This document shows positions 6,701 through 60,157 of a DNA stretch of 64,000 nucleotides, in pieces (position 1 is the first letter of the stretch; each line of letters starts with the position of its first letter). The position numbers were made by a program, and so were the translations under genes. The notes under the pieces are model-generated. The model made no database searches. It had not been told where the DNA came from and saw only the letters and a list, made by a program, of their open reading frames with translations. Source of the stretch: Deinococcales bacterium (lineage in GTDB: Bacteria; Deinococcota; Deinococci; Deinococcales; JAAFIG01); the NCBI GenBank assembly GCA_031414595.1, contig JANNVX010000109.1, positions 22,791 through 86,790 on the forward strand, in the 5' to 3' direction.

Positions 6701-6764
6701 CGTAGGGGTGAACCTTCTTGACCATAAACACGCACCTGACGGGCATGGTCGCTTGTGTTCATCC
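6701..6764 (+). repeat. GTAG-type REP-like palindrome (CGTAGGGGTGAAC-CTTGT-GTTCATCC) interrupted by mini-element E1
   Basis: Removing 6714-6751 restores a GTAG-footed hairpin GGGTGAAC/GTTCATCC. Confidence 0.7.
6714..6751 (+). mobile_element. 38-bp structured mini-element, copy E1
   Basis: CTTCTT-GACCAT-AAACAC-GCACC-TGAC-GGGC-ATGGTC-G; related copies at 8707, 10754 and 60121. Confidence 0.7.
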
Positions 6765-7008
6765 TGTGAGACAAAGTAATTTGGAATTGCCCTATCCTCT
6801 AAGCTGTTTACCCAATATCCCTGAAAGCTCAGAACAATTAGAATTTTTACATGGCACGTCAGAAAGTTAAAAAAACCGATCTTGAAAAACTAAAAATTGT
6901 CCTCGAGAAACCCAAATCAATTCTTGGTCACATCGTCTCGAGACCTGTGCAAACCCACGACAACGAACGCCGCTATAACCGTAAGCGCGATAAGAAAGTT
7001 GCCGAGGA

Positions 7009-8310
7009 ATGAAAGAACTCCTTGCTACGGCGGGTGGTCGCACCTTTTTAACGATGTGGCTTGGACAGAGCATTTCTGGTTTTGGCTCGAGACTGACGAT
7101 TTTTGCCTTTGGCATTTGGTTGTACAAAGAAACGGGTTTGGCGACACCGCTTTATTTAACGGCTTTGGCGGGTTTTTTACCGGGCGTGCTGCTCGCGCCT
7201 ATTGCTGGGGTGATTGTTGATCGTACCGACCGCCGTACTGTGATGATTTTGGTTAATTGTGTTCATACCGTGGTGACACTGGCACAGTTTTTTGTCATCT
7301 CGAGTGGACAGACCAATTTGCCAATTATTCTTGGGCTGCTGGCAATTTCTAGTGCCGCCGAAACGTTTCAGTGGCCAGCCGAATCCTCGAGCATGAGTGT
7401 GCTTGTGCCACCAAGTCAACTTGGTCAAGCCAATGGTCTGTACGCAATGATGGGCGGAGCAGGGGATTTAATCGCCCCGATTGCTGGGGCGTTACTGGTC
7501 TCGAGTATTGGTATCGCTGGGATTTTACTGATTGACCTTGCCAGTTTTGCATTTGAGTTCTTGACGCTGTTTGTGATTCGGATTCCACCTCCAACTCAGT
7601 CGGTTATCGGCTCAAAGATGCAGGGCGGGGTGTTGGCTCAAGCCAGAGATGGTTTTAAGTTCATCACCTCGAGACCGGGGTTATTTAGTTTGCTGATTAC
7701 TTTTTCGGGCGTGAATTTTCTGCTTGGAATTATCCAAAATCTTCAAGTGCCTCTGATTTTATCGCGAAGCACTGACCCAAGTGCGGTTGGTGTTATCGCC
7801 TCGAGTTTTGGCGTGGGGGTCTTGTTGGGGGGATTTTACATGACCAGCACGGGCGGTTTGCGTCCTCGAGTCCATGGGGTTTTTGCTGGGATTGGTTTTT
7901 CTGGCTTGCTTGGTACGGCTTTATTTGGTGTGGCGCAGAGTATTCCAATTTGGATGTTGGCTAATTTCTTTTTTGGTTTTCTGATGCCTGTCTTAAACGG
8001 CTCGAGTCAGAGTATTTGGCAGTCTAAAACTCCACCAGATATTCAAGGCAGGGTTTTTGCGGCGCGGCGGCAAATCGCCCAGATTACCAGTCCAATGGCA
8101 TTTATTATTGCGGGTCCACTGGCAGATTTGGTTTTTAAGCCGTATTTTGCCACAGCCGATGCTTGGACTTGGTTGCTTGGTGGCTCGAGCGGACGTGGTT
8201 ACGCAGCGATGTTCCTCATTTTTGGTTTTCTGACTTGCGCTTGGGGTTTTGCTGGGTATTTTCGTCCTGCGGCTCGCAATGTCGAACGTGATATTCCAGA
8301 TGCGGTTTGA
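7009..8310 (+). CDS. MFS transporter (MefA/H+ antiporter-like exporter)
   Basis: WLGQSISGFG, AGVIVDRTDRRTVM (motif A), QSIWQSKTPPDIQGRVF; about 12 hydrophobic segments. Confidence 0.9.
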   Translation: MKELLATAGGRTFLTMWLGQSISGFGSRLTIFAFGIWLYKETGLATPLYLTALAGFLPGVLLAPIAGVIVDRTDRRTVMILVNCVHTVVTLAQFFVISSGQTNLPIILGLLAISSAAETFQWPAESSSMSVLVPPSQLGQANGLYAMMGGAGDLIAPIAGALLVSSIGIAGILLIDLASFAFEFLTLFVIRIPPPTQSVIGSKMQGGVLAQARDGFKFITSRPGLFSLLITFSGVNFLLGIIQNLQVPLILSRSTDPSAVGVIASSFGVGVLLGGFYMTSTGGLRPRVHGVFAGIGFSGLLGTALFGVAQSIPIWMLANFFFGFLMPVLNGSSQSIWQSKTPPDIQGRVFAARRQIAQITSPMAFIIAGPLADLVFKPYFATADAWTWLLGGSSGRGYAAMFLIFGFLTCAWGFAGYFRPAARNVERDIPDAV

Positions 8311-8346
8311 AATGTATTCATCATTTTGATTGTGTAGACTTTGCGT

Positions 8347-8984
8347 ATGGCATACAGCAATTTTACACTACAAGAAGTGCTGAAAAAATTTGACCTTAAA
8401 CTCGAGGAAAGCCGTAATTTGTTTGCAGATGTCACACCTCGAGTACCCACGGCACTTTTGACTGCATGGCTCGAGCAAAAAATTCCTTTGGCATTGACAC
8501 TTTCTACCGAAAAAGCCCGTAGTGAATTTATTATTGCCCCAATTCTCGCGAGGTTCGTGAATTGTTGGGTAAACGATTTTCGTTGTTTTCGGGAATAGAT
8601 TTTACGGTTGACTCGAGTCTAGGCTTAAATGGCGAGTGTGATTTTTTGTTTTCTAAGTCGCCAGAGCAATTGGTTTTACTTGCACCTGTGGTTAGTGTGG
8701 TTGAGGCGATTCCGCCCGAAGGTGCGTCTTGGAATCAAGAAGCTAAAAATGAGAGTTTTAGGAACGGTTTAGCTCAGGCTTGCGCCGAAATGCTGGCGGC
8801 TCGGGTTTTTAATGAACGCGAAGAGCATCCACTCGAGCGGGTTTTTGGAGCAGTGACCACAGGTGATGATTGGCAATTTTTAATCCTCGAGGGAAATACA
8901 TTATTTGTGGGTAGTAAACGCTACCACCTAGAAGAACTCCCACAAATTCTAGGAATTTTTTGCCATATGCTCGAGACAGCTTGA
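8347..8984 (+). pseudogene. Frameshifted PD-(D/E)XK-like hypothetical protein (MAYSNFTL..EKARSEFIIAPIL..CDFL..VEAK..GAVTTG..WQFL family)
   Basis: ORFs 8347-8598 and 8562-8984 join at ATT CTC GC GAG GTT (~8548); also carries a 36-bp in-frame insertion at 8707-8742. Confidence 0.75.
8707..8742 (-). mobile_element. 36-bp structured mini-element, copy E2 (in frame, adds 12 aa: VVEA-IPPEGASWNQEA-K)
   Basis: Minus strand reads CTTCTT-GATTCC-AAGAC-GCACC-TTC-GGGC-GGAATC-G; removal restores GAG GCT AAA (EAK). Confidence 0.72.
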
Positions 8985-9180
8985 CGCGCTTTTGCTTATG
9001 ACGTTTGTTATTCTCGAGACTTCACTTTTTTCTAATTTTTTTTACATAAAATCCTCATGCTGTATACTTATTGCCTTTTGAAGTAAAACTGTGTTGTATG
9101 GGACATTCTGGGTTTGACCTTAGCGGCTTACACCACTAAAATGAGACGCTTATCGTTATTATCTTAGAGGAGGCTGGAAA

Positions 9181-9573
9181 GTGGATTACACAACAGAGGT
9201 GACAGGTGCGTTGTACATTGGTCTGTTTGCGTTGATTGGGGCGGGAATTGTTTATATCACGCTCGAGATTGCAAAGTTGGCGTTTTTTTATGCAGGGTCG
9301 CGGCGATTCGGCGGCAATAAAGCTAAGGATTCGGTTTACGAATGTGGTATGGAAACCATTGGCGATACCAATGTGCAATTCAATTTGAATTACTACTTGT
9401 TTGCCATGCTTTTTGTGATTTTTGATGTCGAAGCTGCACTGCTCTATCCGTGGGCTGTGGCATTCGATACTCTTGGGGTCGGTGGTTTACTTGCCGTGCT
9501 GTCTTTCTTGGTGATTTTGTTCCTTGGGTTTTTATACGCACTTCGTAAAGGAGCATTAAAATGGGTTTACTAG
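9181..9573 (+). CDS. nuoA: NADH-quinone oxidoreductase subunit A
   Basis: [38 protein letters not shown] start after GGAGG. Confidence 0.95.
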
Positions 9574-10112
9574 GCACGCAAGCTCGTCCGGATAACGTTA
9601 TTCTTGGTTCGCTTGATGATTTAATTAACCTCTCTCGTTCGAGAAGTTTATGGCCCTTAACTTTTGGTATTGCTTGCTGTGCCATCGAAATGATGAACTC
9701 GAGCGCCACCCGTTACGACATGGATCGTTTTGGCGTTTTTTACCGCAATACGCCGCGTCAAGCCGATGTGATGATTGTCTCGGGGACGGTTAATAAAAAA
9801 ATGGGTAAGGTCGTGCGTCAACTTTGGGAGCAAATGTCCGAGCCTAAATGGGTCATCAGCATGGGCGCATGTGCCAACCAAGGTGGACCATTTCGCCAAG
9901 GCTATAGCGTGGTTGAAGGGGTAGACAAAATTATCCCCGTAGATATTTATGTTCCCGGTTGCCCGCCGCGTCCCGAAGCCCTGATGCAAGCCCTGCTTTT
10001 GCTGCGAGACAAAATCGCTGACCCTGCGGCGCGTTATGTGCCGGGGACAATGATGGATGCTGATTTTGACCCACTCGCTGAACCCGGTCATGATGGACGG
10101 GTGTTGTTGTGA
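9561..10112 (+). CDS. nuoB: NADH-quinone oxidoreductase subunit B
   Basis: [37 protein letters not shown]. Confidence 0.97.
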
Positions 10113-11083
10113 GCCAACCCTCATCCGCTCCAATTGCTCCAGCTAAAATCTGGCATATCCCACTGCTCGAGTCCGACAAGATAGAAAATCTGATAGCTGG
10201 CTTAAAAGCTCGAGCCGAAACACTGTTTGACACGATTCAAATTACTGTTGCTCTCGAGGATTACCGCACCCTATGTGAACGCCTCTTCAAAGCTGGTTTT
10301 GATTTTCCGCAAAGCATGAGCGGTACAGATTTTGAATGGGGTTTAGGGGTTGCGTTGCAACTGCAACAACTCGAGTCCAAACGCAAAGTCACGGTGCGGA
10401 CGTACTGCACCTATCAAAATGCCCATGTCCCAACTGTTTCTGACCTTTGGGGAGGCGTAGATTGGCACGAACGCGAAGCCTATGACCTTGTGGGCATTAT
10501 TTTTGATGGTCATGAAGACTCGATAAATGGTCATCCACGCCGAATTCTGCTCGAGGATCATTGGACGATTCACCCACTGCAAAAGCGCTATAACACCCGT
10601 GGCTACTTAATCCATGGCTGGACAGAAAAACCATTCCCAACTCCAGCCCCGTGGGAAGAAGGTTTCCAATCCTTCTCTAGCGCTCCTGTGGCTGTTGCTC
10701 ACGTTGCCCCACCCGCGCCGAAAATTGTTCCTGTCGTTGCCGTAGGGGCGAGGCTTCTTGACCCTAAAGCAGCACCTGACGGGCTTGGGTCGCACGCCTC
10801 GCCCGACCCCGCCGAAGCCCCCGCTCCTAAAGCCGAAGCTGCCCCAGTCGTCTCGAGTGACCCACCAAAGAAAGTCGCTAAAAAATGGGTTCCAAAAGGC
10901 GAAGCCGCGCCAATTGTTACCGAAGCCGCCCCTGAAGCTGCCTCGAGTGAACCCGTGCCTGTTGTCTCGAGTGAACCTGCGCCCGTCGTTTCGAGTCCAG
11001 AAGTTGTTGCCGTCTCGAGTCCAGAAGCCGCCCCAGAAGAAAAACCCCGCAATCCTAAAATTAAGCGTTGGGAACCCAGATAA
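10109..11083 (+). CDS. nuoC: NADH-quinone oxidoreductase subunit C with long Pro/Ala-rich C-terminal tail
   Basis: [27 protein letters not shown]; low-complexity tail ending PKIKRWEPR. Confidence 0.92.
10741..10804 (+). repeat. GTAG-type REP (CGTAGGGGCGAGGCACGCCTCGCCC) inside nuoC, interrupted by mini-element E3
   Basis: Matches the 27705 copy once 10754-10792 is removed. Confidence 0.85.
10754..10792 (+). mobile_element. 39-bp structured mini-element, copy E3 (in frame, adds [13 protein letters not shown])
   Basis: CTTCTT-GACCCT-AAAGCA-GCACC-TGAC-GGGC-TTGGGTC-G; the empty allele is visible in the paralogous nuoI tail (14762-14786). Confidence 0.8.
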
Positions 11084-11095
11084 AGGAGGGATGAT

Positions 11096-12277
11096 ATGAC
11101 CGCAGTCGCAGATAAACCGAATAATGCTCGTAATACGTCCGGTTCTGTCATGAACCCGACGACAGTTGAACGGGTCGCGGGTCGCTCGGACGAGATGCTT
11201 CTCAACCTTGGACCACAACACCCAGCCACCCACGGTGTACTTCGAGTTCTTATGGGTGTGGATGGCGAACGTGTCACCAAGGCAATTCCACACATTGGGT
11301 ACTTGCATCGCAACCATGAAAAACTCGAGGAAGTGCGTACTTATCCGATGTGTATTCCCTATACCGACCGCATGGATTACGTGTCGGGAATGCAGAACGA
11401 ATTGCCATTGTGTTTGGCGGTAGAGGAGATGCTAGGTATCGAAGTCCCAGAACGCGCCAAATATGTGCGAACGATTTTATTTGAACTAAGCCGTATTGCG
11501 AGTCACATGGTCTGGATTGGCACATACATGCTCGACCTTGGGGCAATTACTCCGTTTTTATATGCGTTTCGTGACCGCGAAATGATTCTCGACATCATCG
11601 AAGAAACGGCTGGGGCGCGGTTATTACCAAATTATTTCACCTATGGCGGTGTGCGCCGTGACCATCATCCGCGCATGATGCAGGACATTCTCGAGTTCCT
11701 GACGTGGTTTGAGCGTAAGCTCCCAGAGTACGAAGCCCTGACCATTGATGCACCAGTCTTCCAAGCCCGTACCGTTGGTGTTGGTGTGCTAGACCCGCAA
11801 TTGGCGCTCAATCATGGTGTGACCGGACCAAACCTGCGTGGTAGCGGTATCGGCTGGGATTTACGCCGCGACGACCCATATGATGCCTACCCACATTTGG
11901 ATTTCGAGGTCTGTGTGGAGTACGGCTGCGATGCCTACTCAAGAAGCCGCGCTCGTTTTCGTGAATTCCGCGAGAGCATTAAAATTATTCGTCAAGCTGT
12001 TAATCAGTGTCCAAAAGGCGGCGCGTACTTACCAAAACTGCCGCGTCTTAAACCCGTGGCTGGTATGGAACGTTACCGCGCTGTGGAAATCTCGAGGGGA
12101 CATCTTGGGGTGCATATTGTGGCCGACGGTTCAGAAAAACCGTGGCGTGTTAAGCACCGCAGCCCGAGTTTCTGCACCTTGCAAGCCTTAGCGGACATGG
12201 CTGTGGGTTCTAAATTCTCGGATGCAATCGCTATTCTTGGCAGCATTGACATTGTTCTAGGGGAGATTGACCGATGA
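11096..12277 (+). CDS. nuoD: NADH-quinone oxidoreductase subunit D
   Basis: LNLGPQHPATHGVLR, GYLHR, DRMDY, ELSRIASH, GSIDIVLGEIDR; no NiFe CxxC motifs. Confidence 0.97.
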   Translation: MTAVADKPNNARNTSGSVMNPTTVERVAGRSDEMLLNLGPQHPATHGVLRVLMGVDGERVTKAIPHIGYLHRNHEKLEEVRTYPMCIPYTDRMDYVSGMQNELPLCLAVEEMLGIEVPERAKYVRTILFELSRIASHMVWIGTYMLDLGAITPFLYAFRDREMILDIIEETAGARLLPNYFTYGGVRRDHHPRMMQDILEFLTWFERKLPEYEALTIDAPVFQARTVGVGVLDPQLALNHGVTGPNLRGSGIGWDLRRDDPYDAYPHLDFEVCVEYGCDAYSRSRARFREFRESIKIIRQAVNQCPKGGAYLPKLPRLKPVAGMERYRAVEISRGHLGVHIVADGSEKPWRVKHRSPSFCTLQALADMAVGSKFSDAIAILGSIDIVLGEIDR

Positions 12278-13899
12278 GTATTTATGAAAACAAAGAAGCT
12301 CGGTTGCCGCTCGAGCGTGTCTCTGTGCCTACCGATAAGCATTACAGAATGCGAATGAAGCATCACGGGTTACTGAACGCCAATCCGCGTAAATCGGGTT
12401 TGTTGGCGGCGATTATTGGTTATGCGCTCTTGTTTGGCGCTGCCCACGGTGTGTTAATTCTGGCATTTCAAGTCATTCCAGCACTTTTGACCAACGGCTT
12501 ACCGTTCCCATGGACTGGTTTTGGTCTCGAGAAGAACAGTTTTTGGTTTAACGTCATTTACGGGCTGCTTGCCCCAGTCTTGGCGTTTTTATTTATCGCT
12601 GTGGTGGCATTGATTAACATCCTCATGCTGCGTAAGTACCTCGCTAAAGTTCAGAACCGTTATGGACCTCTGCACAACGGACCCTCGGGCAGTTTACAAA
12701 CGGTTTACGACGCGCTCAAACTGGTTTCTAAAGAAGATTACACCCCCAAAATGGTTGAGGAAACAATTTTCACCCTTGCCCCAGTCCTCGTTTTTGTTTC
12801 TGCCTTTTTACTGATGGCAGTGATACCATTTGCCCCCGGTTGGGTCTTTGCCAATGTCGAAGCTGGCGCAATTTTTATTATTGCGGCGGGTACGCTCGGC
12901 GGGTACGGTGTGCTGCTGGCGGGTTGGAGCATGAACAACAAGTACGGTTTGATGGGTGGCTTACGAGCCGCAGCGCAGCTTGTCAGTTACGAAGTGCCGC
13001 TTTCGATTAGCTTGCTTTCGGTCTGTGTCTACGCGGGCAGCATGAACCTTAGTAAAATTGTCGAAGCCCAACAAAGCCTGTGGTTTGCGATTCCGCTCTT
13101 TATTCCTTTCGTAATTTATTTAATCGCAGGTCTTGCCGAACTTAAAATGACTCCGTTTGACCTCCCAGAAGCCGAATCTGAACTTGTGGCTGGTTTTAAC
13201 ACCGAGTACGGCGGAATGCGTTTCGGATTTTTCTTTGTGGCAGAATTTGCCGAACTTTACCTTCTTCCAGCGTTGATGGCGGTGTTCTTTTTAGGTGGTT
13301 GGAATGCTCCTTCTATTCCAGCACCAACAGGGACTTTTCTTAACACTTGGTCTGGAGGTGCGCCTACCCTAGAACTTGTACTAAAGGCAAATCCAATGGC
13401 GGGTGACTTAAATGCTGATTATATTGTCAATCAAGAAGATTTGACTGCTTTCTCGGCAGCAGAGGTAGATGGCAAAAAGTTACCCAAGTGGCGATTGGAT
13501 ATTACTCGAGATGGTTCAGTTGATTCCAAAGATAGTGAATTTATTTCACGCGAAATTGCCACCAATCCCAAGCCAACCTTATGGCAGCTACTATTTGGAC
13601 CCGGAAGTTTAATTCTCAATAGTATTTATGCTCTGATTTTTCTAGTTAAAGGCGCAGCAGGAGTCTATTTCTACATGTGGATTCGTGCCACACTGCCCCG
13701 TTTCCGTGATGACCAGTTAATGGAACTCTGCTGGAAGGGTTTAATCCCACTTTCTTTAGTTGGATTGTTGCTGGCAGCCGTCTCGAGACTGATTCCAGCC
13801 GTTGGGATTACTATTTCGATATTGGTGGGCGGAACATTCATTGTGATGATTGCACGCGGGGCATTCTTCCCCACCTCGAGTAAGCAGGTGAAAGCATGA
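12274..13899 (+). CDS. nuoH: NADH-quinone oxidoreductase subunit H with N-terminal extension and an internal dockerin/EF-hand-like insertion
   Basis: QNRYGP, DALKLVSKED, SYEVP, PFDLPEAESELVAGFNTEY, WIRATLPRFR; 541 aa versus ~330-360 typical. Confidence 0.93.
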   Translation: MSIYENKEARLPLERVSVPTDKHYRMRMKHHGLLNANPRKSGLLAAIIGYALLFGAAHGVLILAFQVIPALLTNGLPFPWTGFGLEKNSFWFNVIYGLLAPVLAFLFIAVVALINILMLRKYLAKVQNRYGPLHNGPSGSLQTVYDALKLVSKEDYTPKMVEETIFTLAPVLVFVSAFLLMAVIPFAPGWVFANVEAGAIFIIAAGTLGGYGVLLAGWSMNNKYGLMGGLRAAAQLVSYEVPLSISLLSVCVYAGSMNLSKIVEAQQSLWFAIPLFIPFVIYLIAGLAELKMTPFDLPEAESELVAGFNTEYGGMRFGFFFVAEFAELYLLPALMAVFFLGGWNAPSIPAPTGTFLNTWSGGAPTLELVLKANPMAGDLNADYIVNQEDLTAFSAAEVDGKKLPKWRLDITRDGSVDSKDSEFISREIATNPKPTLWQLLFGPGSLILNSIYALIFLVKGAAGVYFYMWIRATLPRFRDDQLMELCWKGLIPLSLVGLLLAAVSRLIPAVGITISILVGGTFIVMIARGAFFPTSSKQVKA

Positions 13900-14951: not shown

Positions 14952-15568
14952 CCGAAGTCAATACTGTTTTCTTTTATTTGGTTGCCCTTGGCATTTTATC
15001 CACGGCAATCTACGCGGTGGCGAGTCCTAAGCTACTAAACGCGGCTGTTTCCCTTGCCTTGTCATTTTTTGCCGTTGGTGGTTTGTATTTCATGCTCGGG
15101 AACGGTTTCTTGGGCATGTTGCAAATTTTAATTAACGCTGGTGCAATTCCAATCGTCACGGTTTTTATTATCATGATGACCCAATCGCGGCGTATCCGCT
15201 TGCGTTCTAATTTGAATGTCGCCGCAGCCCTTCTAGCAATTGTGGTCTTGGCAGGTAGCCTCTGGTCATTTTGGAATAGATACCAAGGTTCGGCAGCCAC
15301 CCAAGGTAAGCAGATAACGTCAACGCCAACTTCTGAACTGGGTGTGAAGTTGCTCAGTGCCGATGGTACATTACTCGCCTTTGAACTTGCTTCGGTGCTG
15401 CTGCTTCTAGCCATGGTTGGTGCAATTGTCCTGACCAAGCGTGACGGCGAAACGATTAAAGGTGATGTCGGTGTGTTGTCCGATGTCGCTTTACCTGTGA
15501 CGGGTGGAGAGCTTTCTCGTCCAGCCGCAACCATCGAACGAGCCTCAAAACAGGAGGTGGTTTCGTGA
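14948..15568 (+). CDS. nuoJ: NADH-quinone oxidoreductase subunit J
   Basis: Operon position; QILINAGAI..VFIIM, FELASVLLLLAMVGAIVL. Confidence 0.92.
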   Translation: MTEVNTVFFYLVALGILSTAIYAVASPKLLNAAVSLALSFFAVGGLYFMLGNGFLGMLQILINAGAIPIVTVFIIMMTQSRRIRLRSNLNVAAALLAIVVLAGSLWSFWNRYQGSAATQGKQITSTPTSELGVKLLSADGTLLAFELASVLLLLAMVGAIVLTKRDGETIKGDVGVLSDVALPVTGGELSRPAATIERASKQEVVS

Positions 15569-15921: not shown

Positions 15922-15932
15922 AGGAGGGGAAA

Positions 15933-27704: not shown

Positions 27705-27728
27705 CGTAGGGGCGAGGCACGCCTCGCC
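27705..27728 (+). repeat. GTAG-type REP, intergenic
   Basis: CGTAGGGGCGAGGCACGCCTCGCC. Confidence 0.85.
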
Positions 27729-50268: not shown

Positions 50269-50282
50269 CGCTATAGTAAAGC

Positions 50283-50857: not shown

Positions 50858-50900
50858 GCAAGGCTCACTCCCCCTCCCAGATGTGAGCCTTGCCTCTTTT
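50858..50900 (+). terminator. Stem-loop with C-rich loop and T-rich tail
   Basis: GCAAGGCTCAC-TCCCCCTCCCAGAT-GTGAGCCTTGC-CTCTTTT. Confidence 0.65.
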
Positions 50901-50963
50901 ATAGGGTGTTCAAAGCCGAATTGGGTAATTGCAAGTCCATACAAATGTCTTTCTATGGCACGA

Positions 50964-51764: not shown

Positions 51765-54379
51765 TTTTTTAAGGCGGCATGAGCGGCACTTAATCGAGCG
51801 ATAGGGATGCGAAAAGGGCTACATGAAACATAATCCAATCCAAGTTGATGAAAATAATTGATTGAAGCTGGGTCGCCGCCATGTTCGCCACAAACCCCTA
51901 TTTTGAGGTCGGCTCGCGCCTTTAAGCCTGCTTGAGTCGCCTGTTCGACCAATTGACCAACCCCAGCAGTATCAAGTGTGGCAAAGGGGTCGTCTTCGAG
52001 TACCCCCATTTCGAGGTAGCGGCTGAGGAATTTTCCTTGGGCATCGTCTCTCGAGAACCCCAAGGTCATCTGGGTTAAATCATTTGTGCCAAAACTAAAG
52101 AAATCTGCCTGAGTTGCAAGTTGATCGGCGATTAAACAAGCTCGCGGAATTTCAATCATTGTCCCAATAGGAATATCTAATTCGATCTTTTGTTCATCAA
52201 AAACCTGCTCGAGTACCTTTTTGATTAAGGCTCGGGTTTGGCTGAGTTCTGAGGTTAAGCCAACCAAGGGAATCATAATTTCTGGACGTGGATGCTTTCC
52301 TTTTTTCTGTAAGTCACAGGCAGCCTCAGCAATGGCTCTGACCTGCATTTCTAGAATTGCTGGACGGGTTAAGAGTAATCGCACCCCACGCAGTCCCATC
52401 ATTGGGTTGGTTTCATGCAATTGCCTGACTCGAGCCAGAACATCTTGATTTTGGCTAGGGGCTTCATTTTTGGATTGTTGCAAGGCAACTTCGACCGCCA
52501 ATGTCTCGAGGACTGGTAAAAATTCGTGCAATGGTGGATCGAGTAAACGCACCGTCACGGGTAAATCATCCATTGCCAAAAAAATCCCCTGAAAATCGTT
52601 GCGCTGCATCTCGAGTAAGTGCGACAGGGCTTCTTGTTCTTTTTTAATGTCTTGGGTCATGATCATTTGGCGAACCCATGGTAGGCGCTGGTCGCCAAAA
52701 AACATATGTTCTGTGCGGCATAATCCAATCCCTTCTGCGCCAAATTGTCTGGCTCGAGTGGCATCTTTGGGGGTATCAGCATTGGCTCGAATTTTTAAGC
52801 GTCTTTGGGCATCTGCCCATAACAGCAATTGTTCAAGTTCTGGGCTGGCTTGACTTGCCTCAACTGCAACTTCACCCAAGAAAACTTGTCCACTTGCCCC
52901 GTCCAAGGTCAGGATTTCTCCAGCCAGAACCCGAGTATCTCCGACTTGAAGCCAACCTTCAAGTGGATTGACCCGCATCGTTTCTGCCCCGACCACGGCT
53001 GGCTTTCCCATGCCTCGAGCCACGACCGCCGCATGAGAGGTCATACCACCACGGGCGGTTAGAATTCCAACCGCAGCGTTCATTCCAGCAATGTCTTCGG
53101 GACTGGTTTCGGTAGTGACCAACAAGACTTTTTTGTATTTGGCTTCTTCTAAAGCAGCTTCAGAAGAAAATACCACCGCCCCAGAAACTGCCCCGGGGCT
53201 GGCAGGTAAACCTTTGGTCAGTAAGGTGGCTTGGTGATGGCTGATGAGCCGAGGGTGTAGAACCTGCTCGAGCATTGAGGGTGTAAAGCGCTCAATCGCT
53301 TGTTGACGCGAAATCAATCCTTCAAGCGCCAAGTCAATAGCGACTTTAGCGGCGGCTAAAGATGTCCTTTTTGCTCCACGGGTTTGTAACAAAAATAATT
53401 TGCCTTGCTCGACCGTAAATTCAAAATCCTGCATGTCTTGATAATGACGCTCTAATAACCGCACGGTTTCTACCAATTGAGAATGCACATCAGGCAACCG
53501 ACGCTCAAGGGCTTCTAGTGGTTCAGGGGTGCGGATTCCTGCAACCACATCCTCACCTTGGGCTTGAAATAAGAACTCTCCAAAAATTTTGTTTTCACCT
53601 GTGTTTGGGTCTCGAGTGAAACCCACGCCCGTACCAGAAGTCTGTCCCAAATTGCCAAATACCATTTCTTGAACAGTCACAGCAGTTCCTAGGTTATCTG
53701 GAATGCTGTTCAATTGACGGTATGTGACCGCCCGGCGATTATTCCAAGAGGCAAAAACTGCCCGAACCGCATTTTCGAGTTGAACCATTGGGTCTTCAGG
53801 AAATTGATCGCCCTGCTCGAGATACAGCGATTTGAAACGTCTTGTTAATTGCTCGAGATCAAAAGCATTTAAGTCAAGGTCATTGCTGGCTTGGCGCTCT
53901 TCTTTAAGTCTATCCATCAAATGATCAAAACGATGTTTTGGTATACCTTGTACCACATCTCCGTAAAGGGCAATAAAACGACGGTAACTGTCCCATGCAA
54001 AGCGTGGATTATTGGTTTCATCCGCCAATGCTTGGGTTGTTTGGTCGTTCAAACCAAGATTGAGTAGCGTATCCATCATCCCGGGCATTGAGAATTTTGC
54101 CCCAGAGCGAACACTGACCAAAAGCGGGTTTTGTAAACCACCAAAAACCTTTTTGCTGGTTTGCTCAAGCCAACCGATATGGGTCAATACTTCATCCCAC
54201 AGTTGAACTGGTAGGGTTTTATGCGTAAGGAAATCTAGACAGGCAGGGGTGCTGATGATAAACCCGTTTGGTACAGGTAAGCCAAGGTGCATCATTTCGC
54301 TTAATCCTGCACCTTTTCCACCAAGTAGCTCTTTTCCTAATCCGTGGGCAGCTTCAAAATGATATACTAATGGATTCAT
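51761..54379 (-). CDS. ppdK: Pyruvate, phosphate dikinase
   Basis: LGGKGAGL, VRSGA..SMPGMMDT, GGMTSHAAVVARG, GLCRTEHMF, SFGTNDLTQ, CGEHGG. Confidence 0.97.
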   Translation of the reverse strand: MNPLVYHFEAAHGLGKELLGGKGAGLSEMMHLGLPVPNGFIISTPACLDFLTHKTLPVQLWDEVLTHIGWLEQTSKKVFGGLQNPLLVSVRSGAKFSMPGMMDTLLNLGLNDQTTQALADETNNPRFAWDSYRRFIALYGDVVQGIPKHRFDHLMDRLKEERQASNDLDLNAFDLEQLTRRFKSLYLEQGDQFPEDPMVQLENAVRAVFASWNNRRAVTYRQLNSIPDNLGTAVTVQEMVFGNLGQTSGTGVGFTRDPNTGENKIFGEFLFQAQGEDVVAGIRTPEPLEALERRLPDVHSQLVETVRLLERHYQDMQDFEFTVEQGKLFLLQTRGAKRTSLAAAKVAIDLALEGLISRQQAIERFTPSMLEQVLHPRLISHHQATLLTKGLPASPGAVSGAVVFSSEAALEEAKYKKVLLVTTETSPEDIAGMNAAVGILTARGGMTSHAAVVARGMGKPAVVGAETMRVNPLEGWLQVGDTRVLAGEILTLDGASGQVFLGEVAVEASQASPELEQLLLWADAQRRLKIRANADTPKDATRARQFGAEGIGLCRTEHMFFGDQRLPWVRQMIMTQDIKKEQEALSHLLEMQRNDFQGIFLAMDDLPVTVRLLDPPLHEFLPVLETLAVEVALQQSKNEAPSQNQDVLARVRQLHETNPMMGLRGVRLLLTRPAILEMQVRAIAEAACDLQKKGKHPRPEIMIPLVGLTSELSQTRALIKKVLEQVFDEQKIELDIPIGTMIEIPRACLIADQLATQADFFSFGTNDLTQMTLGFSRDDAQGKFLSRYLEMGVLEDDPFATLDTAGVGQLVEQATQAGLKARADLKIGVCGEHGGDPASINYFHQLGLDYVSCSPFRIPIARLSAAHAALKK

Positions 54380-54531
54380 AAATCAACCTCTGATGTGCTA
54401 TGGATAGTCTGACACGATGTTGAGTGGTTAAAGTCAGTTCAAAATAAACCACAGTCGGGTTCTCGAGTAATCGCTACCAACACGCCAAAATTCTGTGTAC
54501 TATTTTCCTCCTGAGTAGTCACCTCCCTTTT

Positions 54532-55638
54532 TTACAAGGTGCTTTCTGGACTAACGCTCTCGAGTTCAAATTCATCGGCAACTGCTTTATAAGTCAGTTT
54601 GCCATTGCGGGTGTTTAAGCCTTTCATCAGGGCTGGGTCTTGTTTTAATGCCTCAAGACCCTTATCAGCTAAACGCAGTGCATAGCCAATGGTTTGATTG
54701 GTCAGGGCAAAGGTGCTGGTGCGTGGCACGCTGCCCGGCATATTTGCCACACCATAATGCACCACACCATCCACCACATAGGTTGGGTCGTCGTGGGTAG
54801 TTGCATGGATGGTTTCAACACAACCACCTTGGTCTACCGCAACATCCACAATCACACTGCCTTCTGGCATTGAGGACAGCATATCTTTAGTAATCAAATG
54901 CGGCGCTTTTGCACCCGGAATTAAAACACCACCAATCACCAGGTCGGCACTGCGAATCACATCGCGGATATTACTTTCATTGCTTGCCATGGTTTGAATC
55001 CGCCCACCAAAAATATCATCTAAGTACGCCAAACGCCGGTGCGAAACATCCATGATAATCACTCGAGCGCCCATGCCGACCGCAATTTTAGCTGAGTTTG
55101 TGCCAACTACACCGCCACCAATAATCACCACACGCCCCGGAATCACGCCCGGAACACCCCCAAGCAGCACACCACGCCCACCATTGGGTTTAAGTAAACA
55201 CGCCGCACCAACTTGTGGGGCAAGACGACCCGCTACCTCGGACATCGGCGTTAAAAGCGGCAAACTGCCATCTTCAACTTGGACTGTTTCGTAGGCAATC
55301 GCGGTTGTGCCAGCCCGTAAGAGCGCATCGGTTAAATGACGTTCGGCAGCCAAATGTAAATAGGTAAACAGCAGTAAGTCTTCGCGCAAAAAACCGTACT
55401 CGGATTCAATCGGCTCTTTGACTTTAACCACCATCTGTGCCGCCCACGCTTCGGATGCGCTCGAGACCAGTTTCGCCCCAGCCCGTTCATACTCGAGGTC
55501 GGTGATACCACTGCCAATCCCAGCCCCTGTTTGTACCATGACACTGTGACCACGTTTGACCAAGGCAGTCACCCCTGCCGCCGTCATCGAAACCCGATTT
55601 TCTTTGACTTTTACTTCTTTAGGAACACCAATCAACAT
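54532..55638 (-). CDS. ald: Alanine dehydrogenase
   Basis: [40 protein letters not shown]. Confidence 0.97.
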
Positions 55639-55808
55639 AAAAACTCCTTTGGATAGAATAACGGTGACAAGGTGACAAAAAATCTACCTTTAACTTGACC
55701 CGCTTTAATTCTTGAAGGTTTATGATAGTCAATATAACTTGGCTCGAGAAGAAGTTTTATAAGCCATAATCCGAACTTACTTTATGTTTATTAGGTTAAA
55801 ATGACCAA

Positions 55809-56258
55809 ATGGTTCATGAACTTCTTGATTCTTATAATTGCCAAATTCTCGAGCATTTACAACACCAAGGACGGGTCAGTTATAACGAATTGGCAAGGCG
55901 GGTTGGCTTAAGTACCCCCACCATTATTGAACGAATTCGTAAACTCGAGGATGCTGGGATAATTCAAGGGTTTACAGTGCGGCTTGACCTTGAAAAACTT
56001 GGCTATAATGCAATGGCGTTAATCGAAGTCAAAACCAATCCAACCAGTCACCCTAAAGTGCTTGAATTTGCCAGTCAGCAGAAAGAGATTCGTGAATGTT
56101 ACTTTGTGACGGGCGACTCGAGTTTTGTGGCACGGGTGATTATGCAAGACATCTCTGAGCTTCAAAGTTGGATACAGCGCTTCGGCATGTTTGGCGCAAC
56201 CCGCACCAGTGTGGTTTTAAGTAAACCAATCATCAAAGAGATGTTTGCGTTACGCTAA
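55809..56258 (+). CDS. Lrp/AsnC family regulator, divergent from ald
   Basis: ELARRVGLS..ERIRKLEDAGII, CYFVTGD. Confidence 0.93.
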   Translation: MVHELLDSYNCQILEHLQHQGRVSYNELARRVGLSTPTIIERIRKLEDAGIIQGFTVRLDLEKLGYNAMALIEVKTNPTSHPKVLEFASQQKEIRECYFVTGDSSFVARVIMQDISELQSWIQRFGMFGATRTSVVLSKPIIKEMFALR

Positions 56259-56289
56259 TTGTCTCATTAAAAAACCGTAAGCTCGAGAC

Positions 56290-57810
56290 ATGCGTTTTTT
56301 GAGTGGTCTTATTTTATTGGTTTTGGTACTCCTTGGCTCGAGTTTGGCTCAACCTCCCATCGCCCAGGGTATGCAGCCCCGAGTTGGCACACCACAACTG
56401 CGTGGGCTTTGGGTAGATGCCTTTGGCGCAGGGTTTAAGACTCAAAAAGAAGTCGATGACCTAATTCTGTATGCCCAGCGTCTAAAACTCAATGCGCTTT
56501 TTGTACAAGTTGGTCGTCGTATGGATTGCTTTTGTAACCGCTCGAGTGTGCCGCGCAGCAGCGACCCGAAACTGGCTAAGAATTTTGACCCTTTAGAGGC
56601 AATTATTAAAAAAGCTAAACCACTGGGGATTCAAATTCATGCTTGGATTATCACGACTGCCGCCTTTAACACCTCCGAACCGTATTTTTCGAGCAACCAT
56701 GTGATGGCAACCCACGGACGCAGCAGCACCGACCCTTGGATGACCTTGAATACCTCTGGCTCGAGTCGAGCAGGCAAAGACGAAATTCTTGATGTGGCAC
56801 ATCCTGCTGCCGCCGAGTATATTGCCCAGTTTTATATTTCAATCTTAGAGAATTACGATATTGACGGAATTCAATTTGATCGGGTGCGCTACCCAGACAG
56901 TGCCGACCCGCAATTCCGACCTGTTTGGGGCTATAACCCGACCAGCCTAAACCGCTTTCGGCTCGAGACGGGACGCACTGACACGCCTGTGCCTTTAGAT
57001 GCACAGTGGGTTGAATGGCGGCGCGAGCAACTGACCCATTTGGTGCGCCGCATTTACTTAGAAGCCAAAATTCGTAAACCCAAACTCTGGGTCAGTGCTG
57101 CCACGATTACCTACCGCGCTGCACCACGGACTGTCGAAGAATTTAAGCTCACCCGAACTTACAGCGAAGTGCTGCAAGACTGGGTTGGTTGGACTGCCGA
57201 AGGAATTTTAGACCTGAATATCCCAATGAATTACAAACGCGAATACGATGCTGTGCAACAAAAAGAATTTGATGGCTGGAATAATTTTGCCGCCAAAACC
57301 AAAGAGAATGCTTTGGTTGCGACTGGGGCTGGGATTTTTGTCAACAGCTTGCAAGATTCTAAAAAACAGTACGCTCGAGCCATTGCCACCCAAGGGATAA
57401 GCGGTTGGATTGGCTACAGTTACCGCACTGCCGATTTGGAGGTGCTAAATGCCAAAAAAAGCGAGAACAACGGCAAAATAGATTTTCAAAAAGCCTTCTC
57501 GAGCCTATTCTCGAGTGCGGTCAGTTGGGGACAACCCAATAGTAATTTACTCTCGGGGATTTTAGGGCGGGTGGTTAAAAACGGCAACCCAGTCACAAAT
57601 GCCGAACTTGAAGTACGCAGTACCGATGGCTCGAGTATCTTATTGCAAACCGATGCCAATGGCTATTACGGTAGTCCACGGCTTCCCGAAGGACAACTGA
57701 GCATCGGTATCTTAGAGCGCAGCGCCAACAGTGTGACCGTCTCGAGCAGCTTTGATGTAATGGTCACTCGGGGTGTGGTACAGCGCTTACCAGACTTACA
57801 AATTCAGTAA
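56290..57810 (+). CDS. GHL10 (YddW/DigH-like) glycoside hydrolase-like protein with signal peptide
   Basis: LRGLWV, NALFVQV, FDPL, IHAW, YDIDGIQFDRVRYP, WRREQ, PMNY. Confidence 0.85.
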   Translation: MRFLSGLILLVLVLLGSSLAQPPIAQGMQPRVGTPQLRGLWVDAFGAGFKTQKEVDDLILYAQRLKLNALFVQVGRRMDCFCNRSSVPRSSDPKLAKNFDPLEAIIKKAKPLGIQIHAWIITTAAFNTSEPYFSSNHVMATHGRSSTDPWMTLNTSGSSRAGKDEILDVAHPAAAEYIAQFYISILENYDIDGIQFDRVRYPDSADPQFRPVWGYNPTSLNRFRLETGRTDTPVPLDAQWVEWRREQLTHLVRRIYLEAKIRKPKLWVSAATITYRAAPRTVEEFKLTRTYSEVLQDWVGWTAEGILDLNIPMNYKREYDAVQQKEFDGWNNFAAKTKENALVATGAGIFVNSLQDSKKQYARAIATQGISGWIGYSYRTADLEVLNAKKSENNGKIDFQKAFSSLFSSAVSWGQPNSNLLSGILGRVVKNGNPVTNAELEVRSTDGSSILLQTDANGYYGSPRLPEGQLSIGILERSANSVTVSSSFDVMVTRGVVQRLPDLQIQ

Positions 57811-57897
57811 AGGCTTTTAACCACTGCTGTGACCCGAATGTCACTGCAATGGATTGCAGTCTGTGTTAATTTAAGTTACACCAACGTCGGAGGCAAC

Positions 57898-58977
57898 ATG
57901 ACCACCATTCATTTGTATAAGCAGTCATTTTCACCAACCACACAGGTACTGCTTGAGACCCCAGATTTTACGGTTAAAACCTTTGTTTACCCAAGTGGGG
58001 TTCAGGCTGTTCGGCTCGAGAATCGTGTTGGTCATTTAATGATGCTGCCTTTTCAGGGACAACAAATTTGGGATGCGGTTTTTTTTGACCGTTGCTTAAC
58101 CATGAAATCCATGTTTGACGACCCAAAACCGACACTGGCGTACTTAGAAAATTATGGTGGTTTGTTGCTGCATTGTGGTGTGAGCGCCATGGGTGTACCA
58201 TCGGCAACCGATACCCACCCGTTGCATGGTGAATTGCCCAATGCCCCATTTCAGACTGCTTCTTTACAACTCAGCGCAGATGAAAACGGCGCGTACATCG
58301 CCTTAAGTGGAACGTACCGCCACACAATTGCTTTTGCCCATAATTACATTGCCACCCCAGAGGTTCGCTTGTATGCCAACTCGAGCCGTGTGGCAGTTTT
58401 TTTAAGCATTGAAAATCTAAAAAACAGTCCGATGGATTTAATGTACTTGGCGCATTTGAATTTTCGCCCTGTCAATGAAGCCCAAATTGTCTACAGTGCC
58501 AAAGTCTCGCCGCAAACTGTGCGAATACGCGACAGTATCCCCGCCCATGCCCAGATTTCCGACCAAGCCTTAGCGCAAATCGAGCAGTTAAAACAACACC
58601 CAGAATTGCACCACACCCTGACAACTGGAATCAGTTACGACCCCGAAGTGGTCTTTTTTATTGACTACTTGGCAGACCAAACCGGTTGGGCGCACAGTTT
58701 ACAAATTCATCCAGATGGCAGTGCCGACTATGTGAGCCACCGCCCCAGCCAGTTACCAGTGGGGGTGCGCTGGATTACCCGCACGCCAGACCAAGACGGC
58801 TTGGGTTTGGTCTTACCCGCCACCTCTGAACCGACTGGATACAGCCTTGAGAAAGCGGCTGGACGGGTGGTTAGTCTTGCACCTCGAGCCAGTTGGCGAT
58901 GCGAATACCAGTTTTGTGTTCTCGAGCCAAGTCAAACCCAAGTGGTTAAGCAGCAAATCCAAGCGATACTGACTTGA
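57898..58977 (+). CDS. Aldose 1-epimerase family (DUF4432) protein
   Basis: LPFQGQQIWDA, HCG..AMG.P..DTHPLHGELP, YLAHLNF, LPATSEP.G; ATG at 57898 after GGAGG. Confidence 0.85.
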   Translation: MTTIHLYKQSFSPTTQVLLETPDFTVKTFVYPSGVQAVRLENRVGHLMMLPFQGQQIWDAVFFDRCLTMKSMFDDPKPTLAYLENYGGLLLHCGVSAMGVPSATDTHPLHGELPNAPFQTASLQLSADENGAYIALSGTYRHTIAFAHNYIATPEVRLYANSSRVAVFLSIENLKNSPMDLMYLAHLNFRPVNEAQIVYSAKVSPQTVRIRDSIPAHAQISDQALAQIEQLKQHPELHHTLTTGISYDPEVVFFIDYLADQTGWAHSLQIHPDGSADYVSHRPSQLPVGVRWITRTPDQDGLGLVLPATSEPTGYSLEKAAGRVVSLAPRASWRCEYQFCVLEPSQTQVVKQQIQAILT

Positions 58978-59019
58978 TTCTCGTCAAACCCATGTCATTT
59001 GATGTTAAACTCGTTACGG

Positions 59020-60045
59020 ATGCAACGTAATTTACACCTCACCTTAGAGCCTTGGAGTCCAGAATACGACACCAGTCTTCATGCCGACCCCAATCAGGCA
59101 AAAGCCATTGAAGATGTCGAACTCGAAGTTGAATTTAGTGTTTGGGGCAAGGTACGCCCCGCCGATTACCGTGTGGATTTTAGTCAATTGTACTTTATAG
59201 ATGGTCGGCGCAGACTCGAGGGGCGAGTCTGGAATACCCTCGATGGTGGAATTATCGCCCCCGGACTGCTTGGCACTCTGGCAGTCGGGGCAGTCACCAC
59301 CAAACACGACACCCTCACCCCAGCCAGAGTCGTGGACAGGGTTCTCGAGCGAATCCTAATTTTATCGGGCGGCACTGGACAAGACTTAATCATCGAAAAT
59401 AGAGGGCATGAATACGGGCGGCTCGAGTACCGCTACGAAGCCTTAAACGAAACCCAGAACTTAGAAAATGCGCTGATGCAACGCTTGCAATTTTTAATGC
59501 GCGATGCCGAAGACAAATTGGCGGGTGGCTTGCCGCTCGAGGATGCGCTGCTGATTTTGGATGGTCCGCTACAACGCCGCGCCCCAGACCGCAGCATGGG
59601 CTATGTTAAAACGCTACATACTTTGTACGTGTCTGGACAAGAACTTGAGGTTCTGCGTCAACTCGAGAAAGGCGAACGCACCCCAGTATTCCGCATTGGC
59701 AGCCGAATTTTGCCACGTTACTCTTGGTATATCCGTCTCGAGAACACCCCCGAGTACATCCAACCTTTTGCGGGTTTGGTTCGCCTTGAAGTGCGCGATG
59801 TGATGGGTCTCGAGTGGGCAAAAAGTATTGCTGATTGGAGTTGTCGTGTTCTACCGCGCTACAGTGCCAAAGCCTTTAGAGACCCTCGAGCGCCACAACA
59901 ACTGATGCCGATTGCTTTTTTGGAATCTGATTTGGGAAGAAGAATGGGTGACATGAGCATCATTCGGCGCAGGATTCAGGCGCATTTAAGAAGTTTGAAC
60001 ACTCGAGAAGCGGAAATTTTAGAACCGCAAACGAACACGAATTAA
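59020..60045 (+). CDS. nurA: NurA family 5'-3' nuclease
   Basis: FIDGRRR, LDGPL, GYVKT, GERTP, DPRAPQQL.PI..LE; upstream of herA. Confidence 0.88.
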   Translation: MQRNLHLTLEPWSPEYDTSLHADPNQAKAIEDVELEVEFSVWGKVRPADYRVDFSQLYFIDGRRRLEGRVWNTLDGGIIAPGLLGTLAVGAVTTKHDTLTPARVVDRVLERILILSGGTGQDLIIENRGHEYGRLEYRYEALNETQNLENALMQRLQFLMRDAEDKLAGGLPLEDALLILDGPLQRRAPDRSMGYVKTLHTLYVSGQELEVLRQLEKGERTPVFRIGSRILPRYSWYIRLENTPEYIQPFAGLVRLEVRDVMGLEWAKSIADWSCRVLPRYSAKAFRDPRAPQQLMPIAFLESDLGRRMGDMSIIRRRIQAHLRSLNTREAEILEPQTNTN

Positions 60046-60047
60046 CC

Positions 60048-60073
60048 CGTAGGGGCGAGGCATGCCTCGCCCC
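60048..60073 (+). repeat. GTAG-type REP, intergenic
   Basis: CGTAGGGGCGAGGCATGCCTCGCCCC. Confidence 0.85.
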
Positions 60074-60120
60074 AACGATTCCCGTCATTAAAATAACCTC
60101 CCACGCACTCCCCCCGCCTT

Positions 60121-60157
60121 CTCTTGACCATAAACGCGCACCTAACGGGCATGGTCG
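60121..60157 (+). mobile_element. ~37-bp structured mini-element, copy E4
   Basis: CTCTT-GACCAT-AAACGC-GCACC-TAAC-GGGC-ATGGTC-G, between the arms of a CGCC/GGCG hairpin and followed by a CCCCCTC/GAGGGGG hairpin. Confidence 0.72.

Follow-up and report, generated by a model that had tools for sequence, protein, structure and literature searches.

Mobile DNA of less than 50 nt is, to our knowledge, barely documented, with a single cyanobacterial study to draw on. The small dispersed repeats (SDR elements) that Elhai is said to have described in 2008 are reportedly non-coding, 21-27 nt long and confined to the Nostocaceae, Nostoc included, where they are said to insert precisely into other repeats and into their own copies and to form hairpins with compensatory changes; one of them, SDR5, reportedly lands inside the HIP1 octamer. 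Brief references to SDR elements are found in PMC5861425, PMC4390886 and PMC3116915. Here, we describe a family of small hairpin elements, called mini-elements below, that was noticed by a reading of the letters alone (the sequence-only reading) in a 64,000-nucleotide stretch of DNA from an uncultured Deinococcales bacterium (contig JANNVX010000109.1, positions 22,791 to 86,790). This whole stretch is referred to as the window, and positions are those of the window unless a contig is named. The best explanation of the observations presented here is that mini-elements are a lineage-specific, non-autonomous mobile family, 36-40 nt in length and divided into several subfamilies.

Other systems with which such elements may be compared are the repetitive extragenic palindromes (REP) with their REP-associated tyrosine transposases (RAYT), the insertion sequences (IS) of the IS200/IS605 and IS110 groups and the Rickettsia palindromic elements (RPE). 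In described REPtrons the REPs flank the gene, the cut distances of IS608 are 19 nt and 10 nt, the IS110 family employs a bridge-RNA mechanism and the recombination of double-stranded circles, and RPE are about 100-150 bp long. Purified TnpA-REP enzymes cut on one strand at C|T (also at C|A), 5' or 3' of a hairpin, and join the incoming 3'-OH to T, and the E. coli enzyme needs a bulge in the stem (PMC8266576). IS110/IS1111-type elements that target REPs are on record (Tobes and Pareja 2006, as cited in PMC3116915) and RPE are palindromic repeats that lie in frame in protein genes which stay functional (PMC3733652).

The four copies that the sequence-only reading had claimed are all present, with their ends shifted by 1-2 nt, and are given here with their hosts:

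6715..6752, + strand: E1, a 38-nt mini-element with a GACCAT/ATGGTC stem, in the loop of an intergenic REP (60.2 bits with the covariance model)
6702..6770, + strand: host GTAG-type REP hairpin of E1, GTAGGGGTGAAC ... GTTCATCC, split by E1
8706..8741, - strand: E2, a 36-nt mini-element with a GATTCC/GGAATC stem, inside a coding frame
10755..10793, + strand: E3, a 39-nt mini-element with a GACCC/GGGTC stem, in frame in the NuoC tail
10742..10804, + strand: host GTAG REP of E3, GTAGGGGCGAGGC ... ACGCCTCGCCC, inside nuoC
27706..27728, + strand: REP without an insert, of the same sequence as the E3 site when rebuilt empty
60121..60158, + strand: E4, a mini-element occupying the loop (TTC) of a CGCC/GGCG hairpin
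60107..60184, + strand: host repeat of E4, ACTCCCCCCGCC-TTC-GGCGACCCCCTC, plus a CCCCCTC/GAGGGGG hairpin

E4 adds a net 39 nt to its host, and the placing of its ends can be moved by 3 nt within 60119-60160.

The empty sites that had been rebuilt by removing each element from its host have real counterparts for all four copies. The E1 locus is filled in one relative (G005), and another (G004) has the same GTAG-type REP with a CTTGT loop and no element; in a third (G003) the element is missing together with one arm of the REP. The 36 nt of E2 are absent from six of six homologous genes, found in five genomes and all reading VVEAK, and from a contig of an independent metagenome of another study (run X8), which skips from 8707 to 8745 with one letter between. 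A contig of the same run bridges nuoC and skips exactly 39 nt at E3, the shorter side of the match being 129 nt. The uninterrupted REP at 27706-27728 gives the same empty form, as does the REP that stands alone at the nuoC position in G001, while G007 has a different repeat at this position, G003 two reverse-oriented mini-elements in another host repeat, and G006 none. The host repeat of E4 occurs in the genome seven times empty with the CGCC-TTC-GGCG hairpin, four times empty in variant forms and four times filled, the inserts being 39 nt (three cases) or of similar length and coming from three different subfamilies. At a site in the leader of an IS110-family element, two of eight IS copies are empty, four hold one subfamily (once as a tandem pair) and two hold another. 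Filled and empty alleles of this kind can hardly have arisen unless the element was inserted or excised precisely and more than once. Also upheld is the view of a dispersed, non-coding element far smaller than a miniature inverted-repeat transposable element (MITE), which is insertion-polymorphic and has neither inverted terminal repeats nor a clear target duplication.

Each copy is one compound hairpin, with an outer stem in which only the pairing is kept, an A-rich bulge and an inner GC(A)CC-loop-GGGC hairpin with a bulged A. The shared plan proposed from the four copies was recovered in the order TTCTTG, 5' arm of 5-6 nt, A-rich unpaired stretch, GCACC, loop of 3-4 nt, GGGC, 3' arm and CGC. 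The 5' end TTCTTG (or TGTCTTG) and the 3' end (T)CGC are its invariant parts, and full copies measure 34-41 nt with a mode of 38-39. A separate subfamily of about 25 copies (TTCTTGCTC..AGCACC..GGGCT.TTCGCGC) has the ends and the inner hairpin in common with the others and a different outer fold. The core pattern (CTTGA, gap, GCACC, 3-4 nt loop, GGGC) occurs at exactly four places in the window and in none of 100 dinucleotide-preserving shuffles, and a covariance model recovered E1-E4 in the window and no further copy.

That the outer stem changes in sequence and keeps its pairing, as the sequence-only reading held, was substantiated in an alignment of 60 matches (45 of them distinct) from this genome and its relatives, which was fitted to the model and so somewhat favours structure. 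Paired cells make up 96% of this alignment. Among the 45 distinct sequences, five of the six outer pairs show changes on both sides, in 38 cells; none of 500 column shuffles reached the observed covariation score, and sliding the partner by 1-3 columns lets pairing fall to 21-53%. The variants of the outer stem comprise GACCAT/ATGGTC, GACCCT/AGGGTC, GACCAC/GTGGTC, GATTCC/GGAATC, GATTCT/AGAATC, GAACCC/GGGTTC and GGCCCC/GGGCC. The inner helix GC(A)CC/GGGC is constant in 44-45 of the 45 sequences and is therefore silent on pairing, either way; such constancy would mark a site of sequence-specific recognition. Two copies have an extra C just 5' of the inner hairpin and, in compensation, an extra G on its 3' side. 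Single copies folded as DNA, on either strand, give the expected hairpin at ordinary energies (z from -0.9 to -1.7, with 13-37 of 200 shuffles as stable), and the case for structure accordingly rests on covariation. Wobble pairs, as a test of which strand folds, amount to 4 against 2 cells only.

The family proved larger than the four copies of the sequence-only reading. A first covariance model, built from E1-E4 and used with a match threshold of E up to 1, gave 119 matches in the source genome (G000), a 4.49-Mb draft of 120 contigs with 47% G+C; five of these, with another copy inside them, reach 61-77 nt for that reason. Among 40 related genomes, 17 of the 18 from the same family contained matches, at counts of 12 to 161 per element-bearing genome, the higher of which are near the ceiling set by the roughly 150 candidates scored per genome. 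The only family genome without the mini-element, G002, is 82% complete. A second family yielded a single weak match in one of six genomes and three further families none in 16, and with an improved model built from 60 aligned copies, 150 more genomes sampled across the phylum yielded single weak matches in two. Outside the family, only single weak matches were found, in 3 of about 160 genomes of the order and phylum. An exact-pattern scan over one genome per species, in 185,579 species, found at least 125 stretches, and all 80 matches listed are titled 'MAG: Deinococcales bacterium' (MAG, metagenome-assembled genome). Rfam gave no match at the gathering score over the window and none at E up to 1 over 6500-11000, and E1 with its flanks had no match in phage and plasmid collections.

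If SDR elements are as reported, mini-elements resemble them in being tiny and non-coding, in nesting in themselves and in other repeats and in their compensated hairpins. They differ from SDR elements so described in being longer (copies of 34-41 nt), in occurring in uncultured Deinococcales, in their bulged inner hairpin, in a target of C|T type and in forming tandem arrays. No description of the family was found in the literature on small dispersed repeats, in works citing Elhai, or in work on nested hairpin-loop repeats or on REPs of Deinococcales. The sequence-only reading did not recognise a described family; this is true of the sequence, and it has to be qualified for the kind, which has reportedly been described in cyanobacteria. 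As far as our searches reach, the kind is barely studied, and the mini-element, longer and from another phylum, has its own anatomy and its own target rule.

The 119 matches fall into several classes of landing site. Hairpins of GTAG-type REPs hold 47. Another copy is the host of nine, which follow directly on the GCACC in its inner loop, and five more carry such a copy inside; a further six are nested at fixed points of other kinds, behind GGGC, the 5' arm or a half copy. Five sit in a C-rich repeat and two at contig ends, and the remaining 45 lie elsewhere, in other small repeats and unique sequence among other places. When similar flanks were collapsed, the 112 full copies came down to 69 distinct contexts. 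The claimed preference for hairpin loops is borne out, in that the flanks can form a stem of at least 5 bp around the insert in 15 of the 69 contexts (22%), compared with 5% of 5,000 random positions, and the insert is usually 0-2 nt from the 5' arm of this stem. Landing sites are mostly the 5' side of hairpin loops, be it of REPs, of other repeats or of other copies, or else the ends of elements. On contigs C7, C113 and C31 of the source genome, and on others, several mini-elements are found in short imperfect tandem repeats such as TTCGCCT/TTTGCC(C). Some copies of this genome also lie in pyrimidine-rich TTCCTC stretches, which would read as ribosome-binding sites on the other strand.

Rebuilding the target dinucleotide in the 69 contexts gave C|T in 36, C|C in six, C|A in five and C|G in three, against a CT background of 5.4%. 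The site is degenerate, and the base upstream of the insert is C in 50 contexts; at the right junction, C|T is found in 50 as well. Microhomology of at least 2 nt was present at the junctions of 42 contexts, compared with 17% at random positions, and the shared strings (GC, CT, CTT, CTTC, GCTT, TTC) are pieces of the joint ..TCGC|TTCTTG.. that arises when elements lie end to end. The target therefore looks like two ends of the element put together, (G)C|TT(C), with C|T as the most frequent form. One variant of the C-rich repeat has an empty site that reads G|C. The earlier statement that there is no clear target duplication beyond C or GC holds as regards a duplication of fixed length, of which there is none, and fails as regards extent, the junction ambiguity being 1-4 nt (C, GC, CT, CTT). 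A consistent target duplication of 2-3 nt was considered and rejected, since left linkers such as TT, TGT and TAT mismatch the downstream bases in many nested cases when compared by eye.

Insertion at the end of an element produces tandem arrays, and perfect head-to-tail tandems of 2-4 units are found in the relatives. On one Deinococcales MAG contig (L159), four perfect head-to-tail copies of 37 nt directly follow a terminator-like hairpin, and another stretch (L128) consists almost wholly of mini-elements, nested three deep.

Two of the four copies in the window lie in genes:

10109..11083, + strand: nuoC, 324 aa, with a Complex1_30kDa domain at aa 45-166, then a variable, repeat-collecting tail and a conserved C-terminus
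8347..8984, + strand: gene of about 200 aa with a D...VVEAK motif, carrying a 1-nt frameshift, its E-x-K motif split by E2

The NuoC frame stays open through the variable tail in five of five genomes compared and returns to the conserved C-terminus, so the REP plus E3 are translated in the source genome and other repeats in its relatives. The D...VVEAK protein had no Pfam hit; by eye, its motif would make it PD-(D/E)xK nuclease-like. In addition to E2, a 1-nt deletion splits the frame of the copy in the source genome, and the host gene is therefore probably a pseudogene already. Over the whole genome, 24 of the 112 full copies lie inside stop-free frames of at least 150 aa. Their lengths are divisible by three in 18 of the 24, compared with 49 of the 88 elsewhere (p=0.10), and their orientation relative to the enclosing frames is 12:12, which points to an element acting at the level of DNA rather than to an RNA motif. 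The sequence-only reading had both coding copies inserted in frame. The nuoC frame is truly kept, but there is no significant genome-wide excess of in-frame lengths, and the host gene of E2 carries its own frameshift. With 39 nt as the commonest length of the family, survival in frame seems to need no more than ordinary selection. RPE, which also lie in frame, have no sequence relation to the mini-element and belong to another lineage.

As for the surroundings of these genes, the NuoC tail (10600-11083) is long and rich in Pro, Ala and Ser; its length and its repeats vary from genome to genome, up to a C-terminus of 17 letters that is conserved, and GTCTCGAGT is frequent in it, at 10840-11080. 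The gene order is nuoA-B-C-D-H, without nuoEFG, and NuoH (12274-13899) is called at 541 aa, although its Pfam match extends over a much shorter stretch (aa 103-354). The family of D...E-x-K proteins of about 200 aa has several copies per genome across the bacterial family (loci L062-L069).

How do such elements move? Our leading reading, to which we give slightly less than an even chance, is that the mini-element is non-autonomous and moves as single-stranded DNA, with an HUH/Y1 enzyme supplied in trans to cut it and rejoin it at C|T. A nuclease-ligase of RAYT-like or IS200/IS605-like type would bind the constant bulged hairpin, cut at C|T on either side of it, about 17 nt 5' and about 8 nt 3' of the inner hairpin, and join the cut ends into a small single-strand circle, which would then be pasted into another exposed C|T. 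A second hairpin-binding site on the enzyme, if present, could hold a resident copy, and this would explain self-nesting and tandem copies. We infer a single-strand route because a duplex of 38 bp is implausibly short for closing into a circle or for accommodating two ends to which a transposase binds, and 38 nt of single strand are long enough for both. The HUH chemistry is suggested because TnpA-REP enzymes cut at C|T (or C|A) beside a hairpin, which in E. coli must have a stem bulge, because the unequal end distances (about 17 and 8 nt) recall IS200/IS605, and because enzymes of the HUH/Y1 type are encoded in most genomes of the family.

REPs with their RAYTs are short high-copy hairpins with covarying stems, a bulge that matters for recognition and an enzyme that acts on single strands next to the hairpin, at C|T or C|A (PMC8266576, PMC3116915, PMC3733652); for the mini-element, such cutting would be indicated indirectly, by C|T at 36 of the 69 rebuilt targets. 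REPs, according to the same sources, also occur in frame inside open reading frames (ORFs), inside other palindromes and as landing sites of IS (PMC8266576, PMC3116915, PMC3733652). The mini-element shares the REP trait of a short, high-copy hairpin with compensatory changes (119 matches, five of six pairs); it differs in having no GTAG or CGTC head, no inverted doublets and no flanking RAYT, and GTAG REPs are its hosts. Membership of the REP/REPIN class was rejected, there being no GTAG in the 45 distinct copies, which start with TTCTTG or GTCTTG and end in TCGC, and no linkage to a RAYT. With IS200/IS605 the mini-element shares the absence of inverted terminal repeats; it may also share that of a target duplication, 0-4 nt being common to its junctions, and a hairpin that would be recognised by an unpaired base (PMC8266576, PMC6006769). 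Cuts at fixed unequal distances 5' and 3' of the hairpin would be a further likeness, with a single-strand circle as a plausible route. IS200/IS605 elements differ in having separate left and right hairpins and a defined target of 4-5 nt. Derivation as a miniature IS200/IS605 element was likewise rejected, as no full-length IS with homologous ends was found around 10 Y1 loci. A classical MITE of the kind moved by DDE transposases was set aside because the two ends, TTCTTG and TCGC, do not form an inverted repeat and the junction overlap varies from 0 to 4 nt.

Candidate enzymes are widespread in the family. Y1_Tnp (PF01797) genes occur in 15 of the 18 family genomes, some of them adjoining a TnpB-sized ORF, and RAYT-like homologues in 16 of 18. 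The RAYT-like genes of the source genome itself are:

contig C98, 106767-107468, - strand: RAYT-like gene 1, with HUH and Tyr motifs
contig C109, 4189-4776, - strand: RAYT-like gene 2, with HUH and Tyr motifs, 18 kb upstream of the window

The weak Y1_Tnp match of this genome is a RAYT-like protein of 234 aa; it has HUH (HVH) and Tyr motifs, is interrupted by a low-complexity insert and matches the NCBIfam model 'REP-associated tyrosine transposase' at E 3e-17 and 62.9 bits, below the 80-bit cut-off. All of the RAYT-like genes inspected, 12 of 12, harbour GTAG REPs within their ORF, in most cases two in inverted orientation, in the part that separates the HUH and Tyr motifs (loci L082-L091 among them). 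Mini-elements occur in only four of the 12 loci, each of 2.2-4 kb, around RAYT-like genes, and in every case in or beside REPs. A model search of the 10 Y1 loci gave one unrelated copy far from the gene and otherwise weak noise. G002, the genome without mini-elements, has no Y1, RAYT-like or IS110 match and a single GTAG REP, compared with 99 in G006. Y1 (15/18), RAYT-like (16/18) and IS110 genes (8/18) are none of them exclusive to element-bearing genomes, and phyletic data consequently single out no enzyme. The mobilisers first suggested thus retain their presence, as HUH/Y1 and RAYT-like genes, in most family genomes, and none is flanked by the element. The IS110 found lands in the mini-element and has different ends.

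Around these genes, most RAYT-like frames that carry REPs stay open, and different paralogues hold different types of REP. RAYT-like gene 1 lies between an apparent hsdM, with the N6-adenine methylase motif NPPF, and an apparent hsdS (contig C98, 105801-108198), a neighbourhood which from its translations we would read as a type I restriction-modification operon. In G005 a Y1_Tnp gene is in two pieces with two internal TGA codons (contig C401, 8645-9024), and a mini-element match lies between the pieces at 8799-8836.

Several observations weigh against a trans-acting HUH/Y1 enzyme. No enzyme is linked to the mini-element, and no element-like ends were found beside the Y1 genes at the 10 loci, searched with the model and with filters off. 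The only Y1_Tnp match of the source genome is weak, at 23 bits and at the cut-off. What the RAYT-like genes harbour are GTAG REPs rather than mini-elements, and GTAG is absent from the latter; RAYT-like homologues are also present in 6 of 22 genomes of other families, genomes without the element (f2, f4, f5) included, and G019, from another family, has GTAG REPs and a RAYT-like gene with only one weak mini-element match. IS200/IS605 elements use two hairpins, and the mini-element has one. The target is other than C|T in 33 of the 69 contexts, and the empty site of one REP type (GTAGGGACAG...) is unambiguously T|C. The C|T junctions fit an IS110-type CT core equally well. The strand of insertion shows no bias relative to local GC skew (47:61, p=0.21), the test being weak in a fragmented assembly, and the ordinary folding energies of single copies mean that thermodynamics alone does not single out the mini-element.

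Such points leave room for movement by another route, either by a different nuclease or recombinase or through an RNA or reverse-transcribed intermediate of which the fold is recognised. No known mobiliser is linked to the mini-element, and SDR elements are not known to have one either. We nevertheless consider this doubtful, as nothing points to it positively, random orientation relative to host frames disfavours movement by way of transcripts, and the C|T rule and the bulged hairpin suit HUH enzymes.

The concentration of copies in GTAG REPs (47 of 119), together with the long identical flanks of many of them, which reduced 112 full copies to 69 contexts, might instead reflect a few old insertions that were carried along when REPs and other repeats multiplied, and that spread from one repeat copy to the next through gene conversion or slippage; slippage could make the tandem copies as well. 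Passive spread of this kind is unlikely. Copies are found in unique sequence, such as E2 in its gene, and in at least five kinds of host; they lie in each other at fixed positions, one IS site is occupied by two subfamilies, and the 69 contexts are what is left after similar flanks have been collapsed.

The third alternative is that an IS110-family recombinase (bridge-RNA, DEDD) moves the mini-element in trans. Recombinases of this kind exchange DNA at a CT core common to both partners, and the mini-element would be the donor, with its joint at CT. When split elements were scanned for, an IS110-family element of 1.2 kb came to light on contig C42 of the source genome (2336-3569), where it interrupts the inner loop of a mini-element; this IS110 copy is degenerate and itself carries two mini-elements. 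At 11 of 14 IS110 loci of the family (L222-L242 among them), the IS abuts both halves of a mini-element, in the arrangement GCAC-CT|TGTAAGTT ... ACGGCTG-CT|loop-GGGC, and the CT that flanks it in the inner loop is the same C|T where other mini-elements nest. Many mini-element insertions can moreover be written as CT-flanked, and the 5' leader of the IS, which we take to be the bridge-RNA region, is a hot spot for mini-elements and is found empty, singly filled or doubly filled. Hairpin repeats as targets and a CT core on both sides are thus likenesses to IS110/IS1111 elements, and because the IS110 itself lands at CT, a CT core alone cannot tell HUH from IS110 chemistry.

Closely related IS110 copies sit in different mini-element subfamilies, however, which makes the halves the target and not the ends of the IS: an IS110-family element uses the inner loop of the mini-element as a landing site, much as IS110-type elements are on record for landing in REPs (cited in PMC3116915). 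Movement of the mini-element by such a recombinase is quite improbable. The gene (DEDD_Tnp_IS110) is found in only 8 of the 18 family genomes, as against 17 with the element, and the only copy in the source genome is the degenerate one; the ends of the IS (TGTAAGTT..., ...ACGGCTG) read unlike those of the mini-element, nearly half of the targets are without CT, and 38 bp cannot form the double-stranded circles that such recombinases use. Autonomous IS110/IS1111 elements differ further in their length of 1.2-1.5 kb and have no ends in common with the mini-element. Derivation from an IS110 was rejected on the same grounds, the IS ends not being those of the mini-element and the flanking halves varying between closely related copies; a full-length parent with the ends of the element was also sought, and the split-half scan found only the degenerate IS110 copy, an insertion into a mini-element.

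A structured RNA or DNA signal under selection, for instance a terminator or a protein-binding site, would account for a constant inner hairpin within a covarying stem, and is very improbable for a motif that has no Rfam match even at E up to 1, lies in either orientation within open frames, occurs in coding regions, pseudogenes, an IS and itself, and varies in presence and absence at orthologous sites.

Returning to the single-strand element moved by an HUH/Y1 enzyme, a bolder form of this reading may be considered, in which one bulged hairpin suffices for HUH-type cutting, circularising and re-insertion, and the same hairpin captures incoming copies. We regard such a minimal single-hairpin transposon as possible but rather unlikely. 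If it is real, single-hairpin transposons build nested hairpins and tandems, remodel REPs, lengthen proteins in frame and supply a landing pad for IS110. The mini-element is among the smallest mobile DNAs known and a good system in which to study movement. Copies number in the hundreds over about 18 related genomes; together with exact alleles, both filled and empty, covarying subfamilies, a simple C|T junction rule, tandem and nested products, a constant recognition hairpin of the size of a protein site and candidate HUH enzymes in the same genomes, they make up a rich natural record, and the mechanism is for this reason directly testable with oligonucleotides and purified proteins. Mini-elements have also reshaped their genomes, by extending NuoC in frame, disrupting a nuclease-like gene, rebuilding REPs and creating a target for IS110. 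That the latter lands in the mini-element may be of use to those who wish to understand, and perhaps to predict, where bridge-RNA recombinases act in nature.

Finally, the source genome is skewed in its palindromes. The 2015 survey of highly iterated palindromes (HIP) makes no mention of CTCGAG in its text (PMC4390886). This hexamer occurs 23,235 times in the 4.49 Mb, about 24 times the mononucleotide expectation or about once per 193 bp, and is by far the most over-represented palindrome of six letters; its excess recalls HIP1, and CTCGAG would be a palindrome of this highly iterated type from outside the cyanobacteria. Near-absent from the same genome are GGGCCC (0), CGATCG (3), GGCGCC (3), CGCGCG (3), AGGCCT (4) and GCGATCGC (0), and GATC is under-represented about 7-fold.

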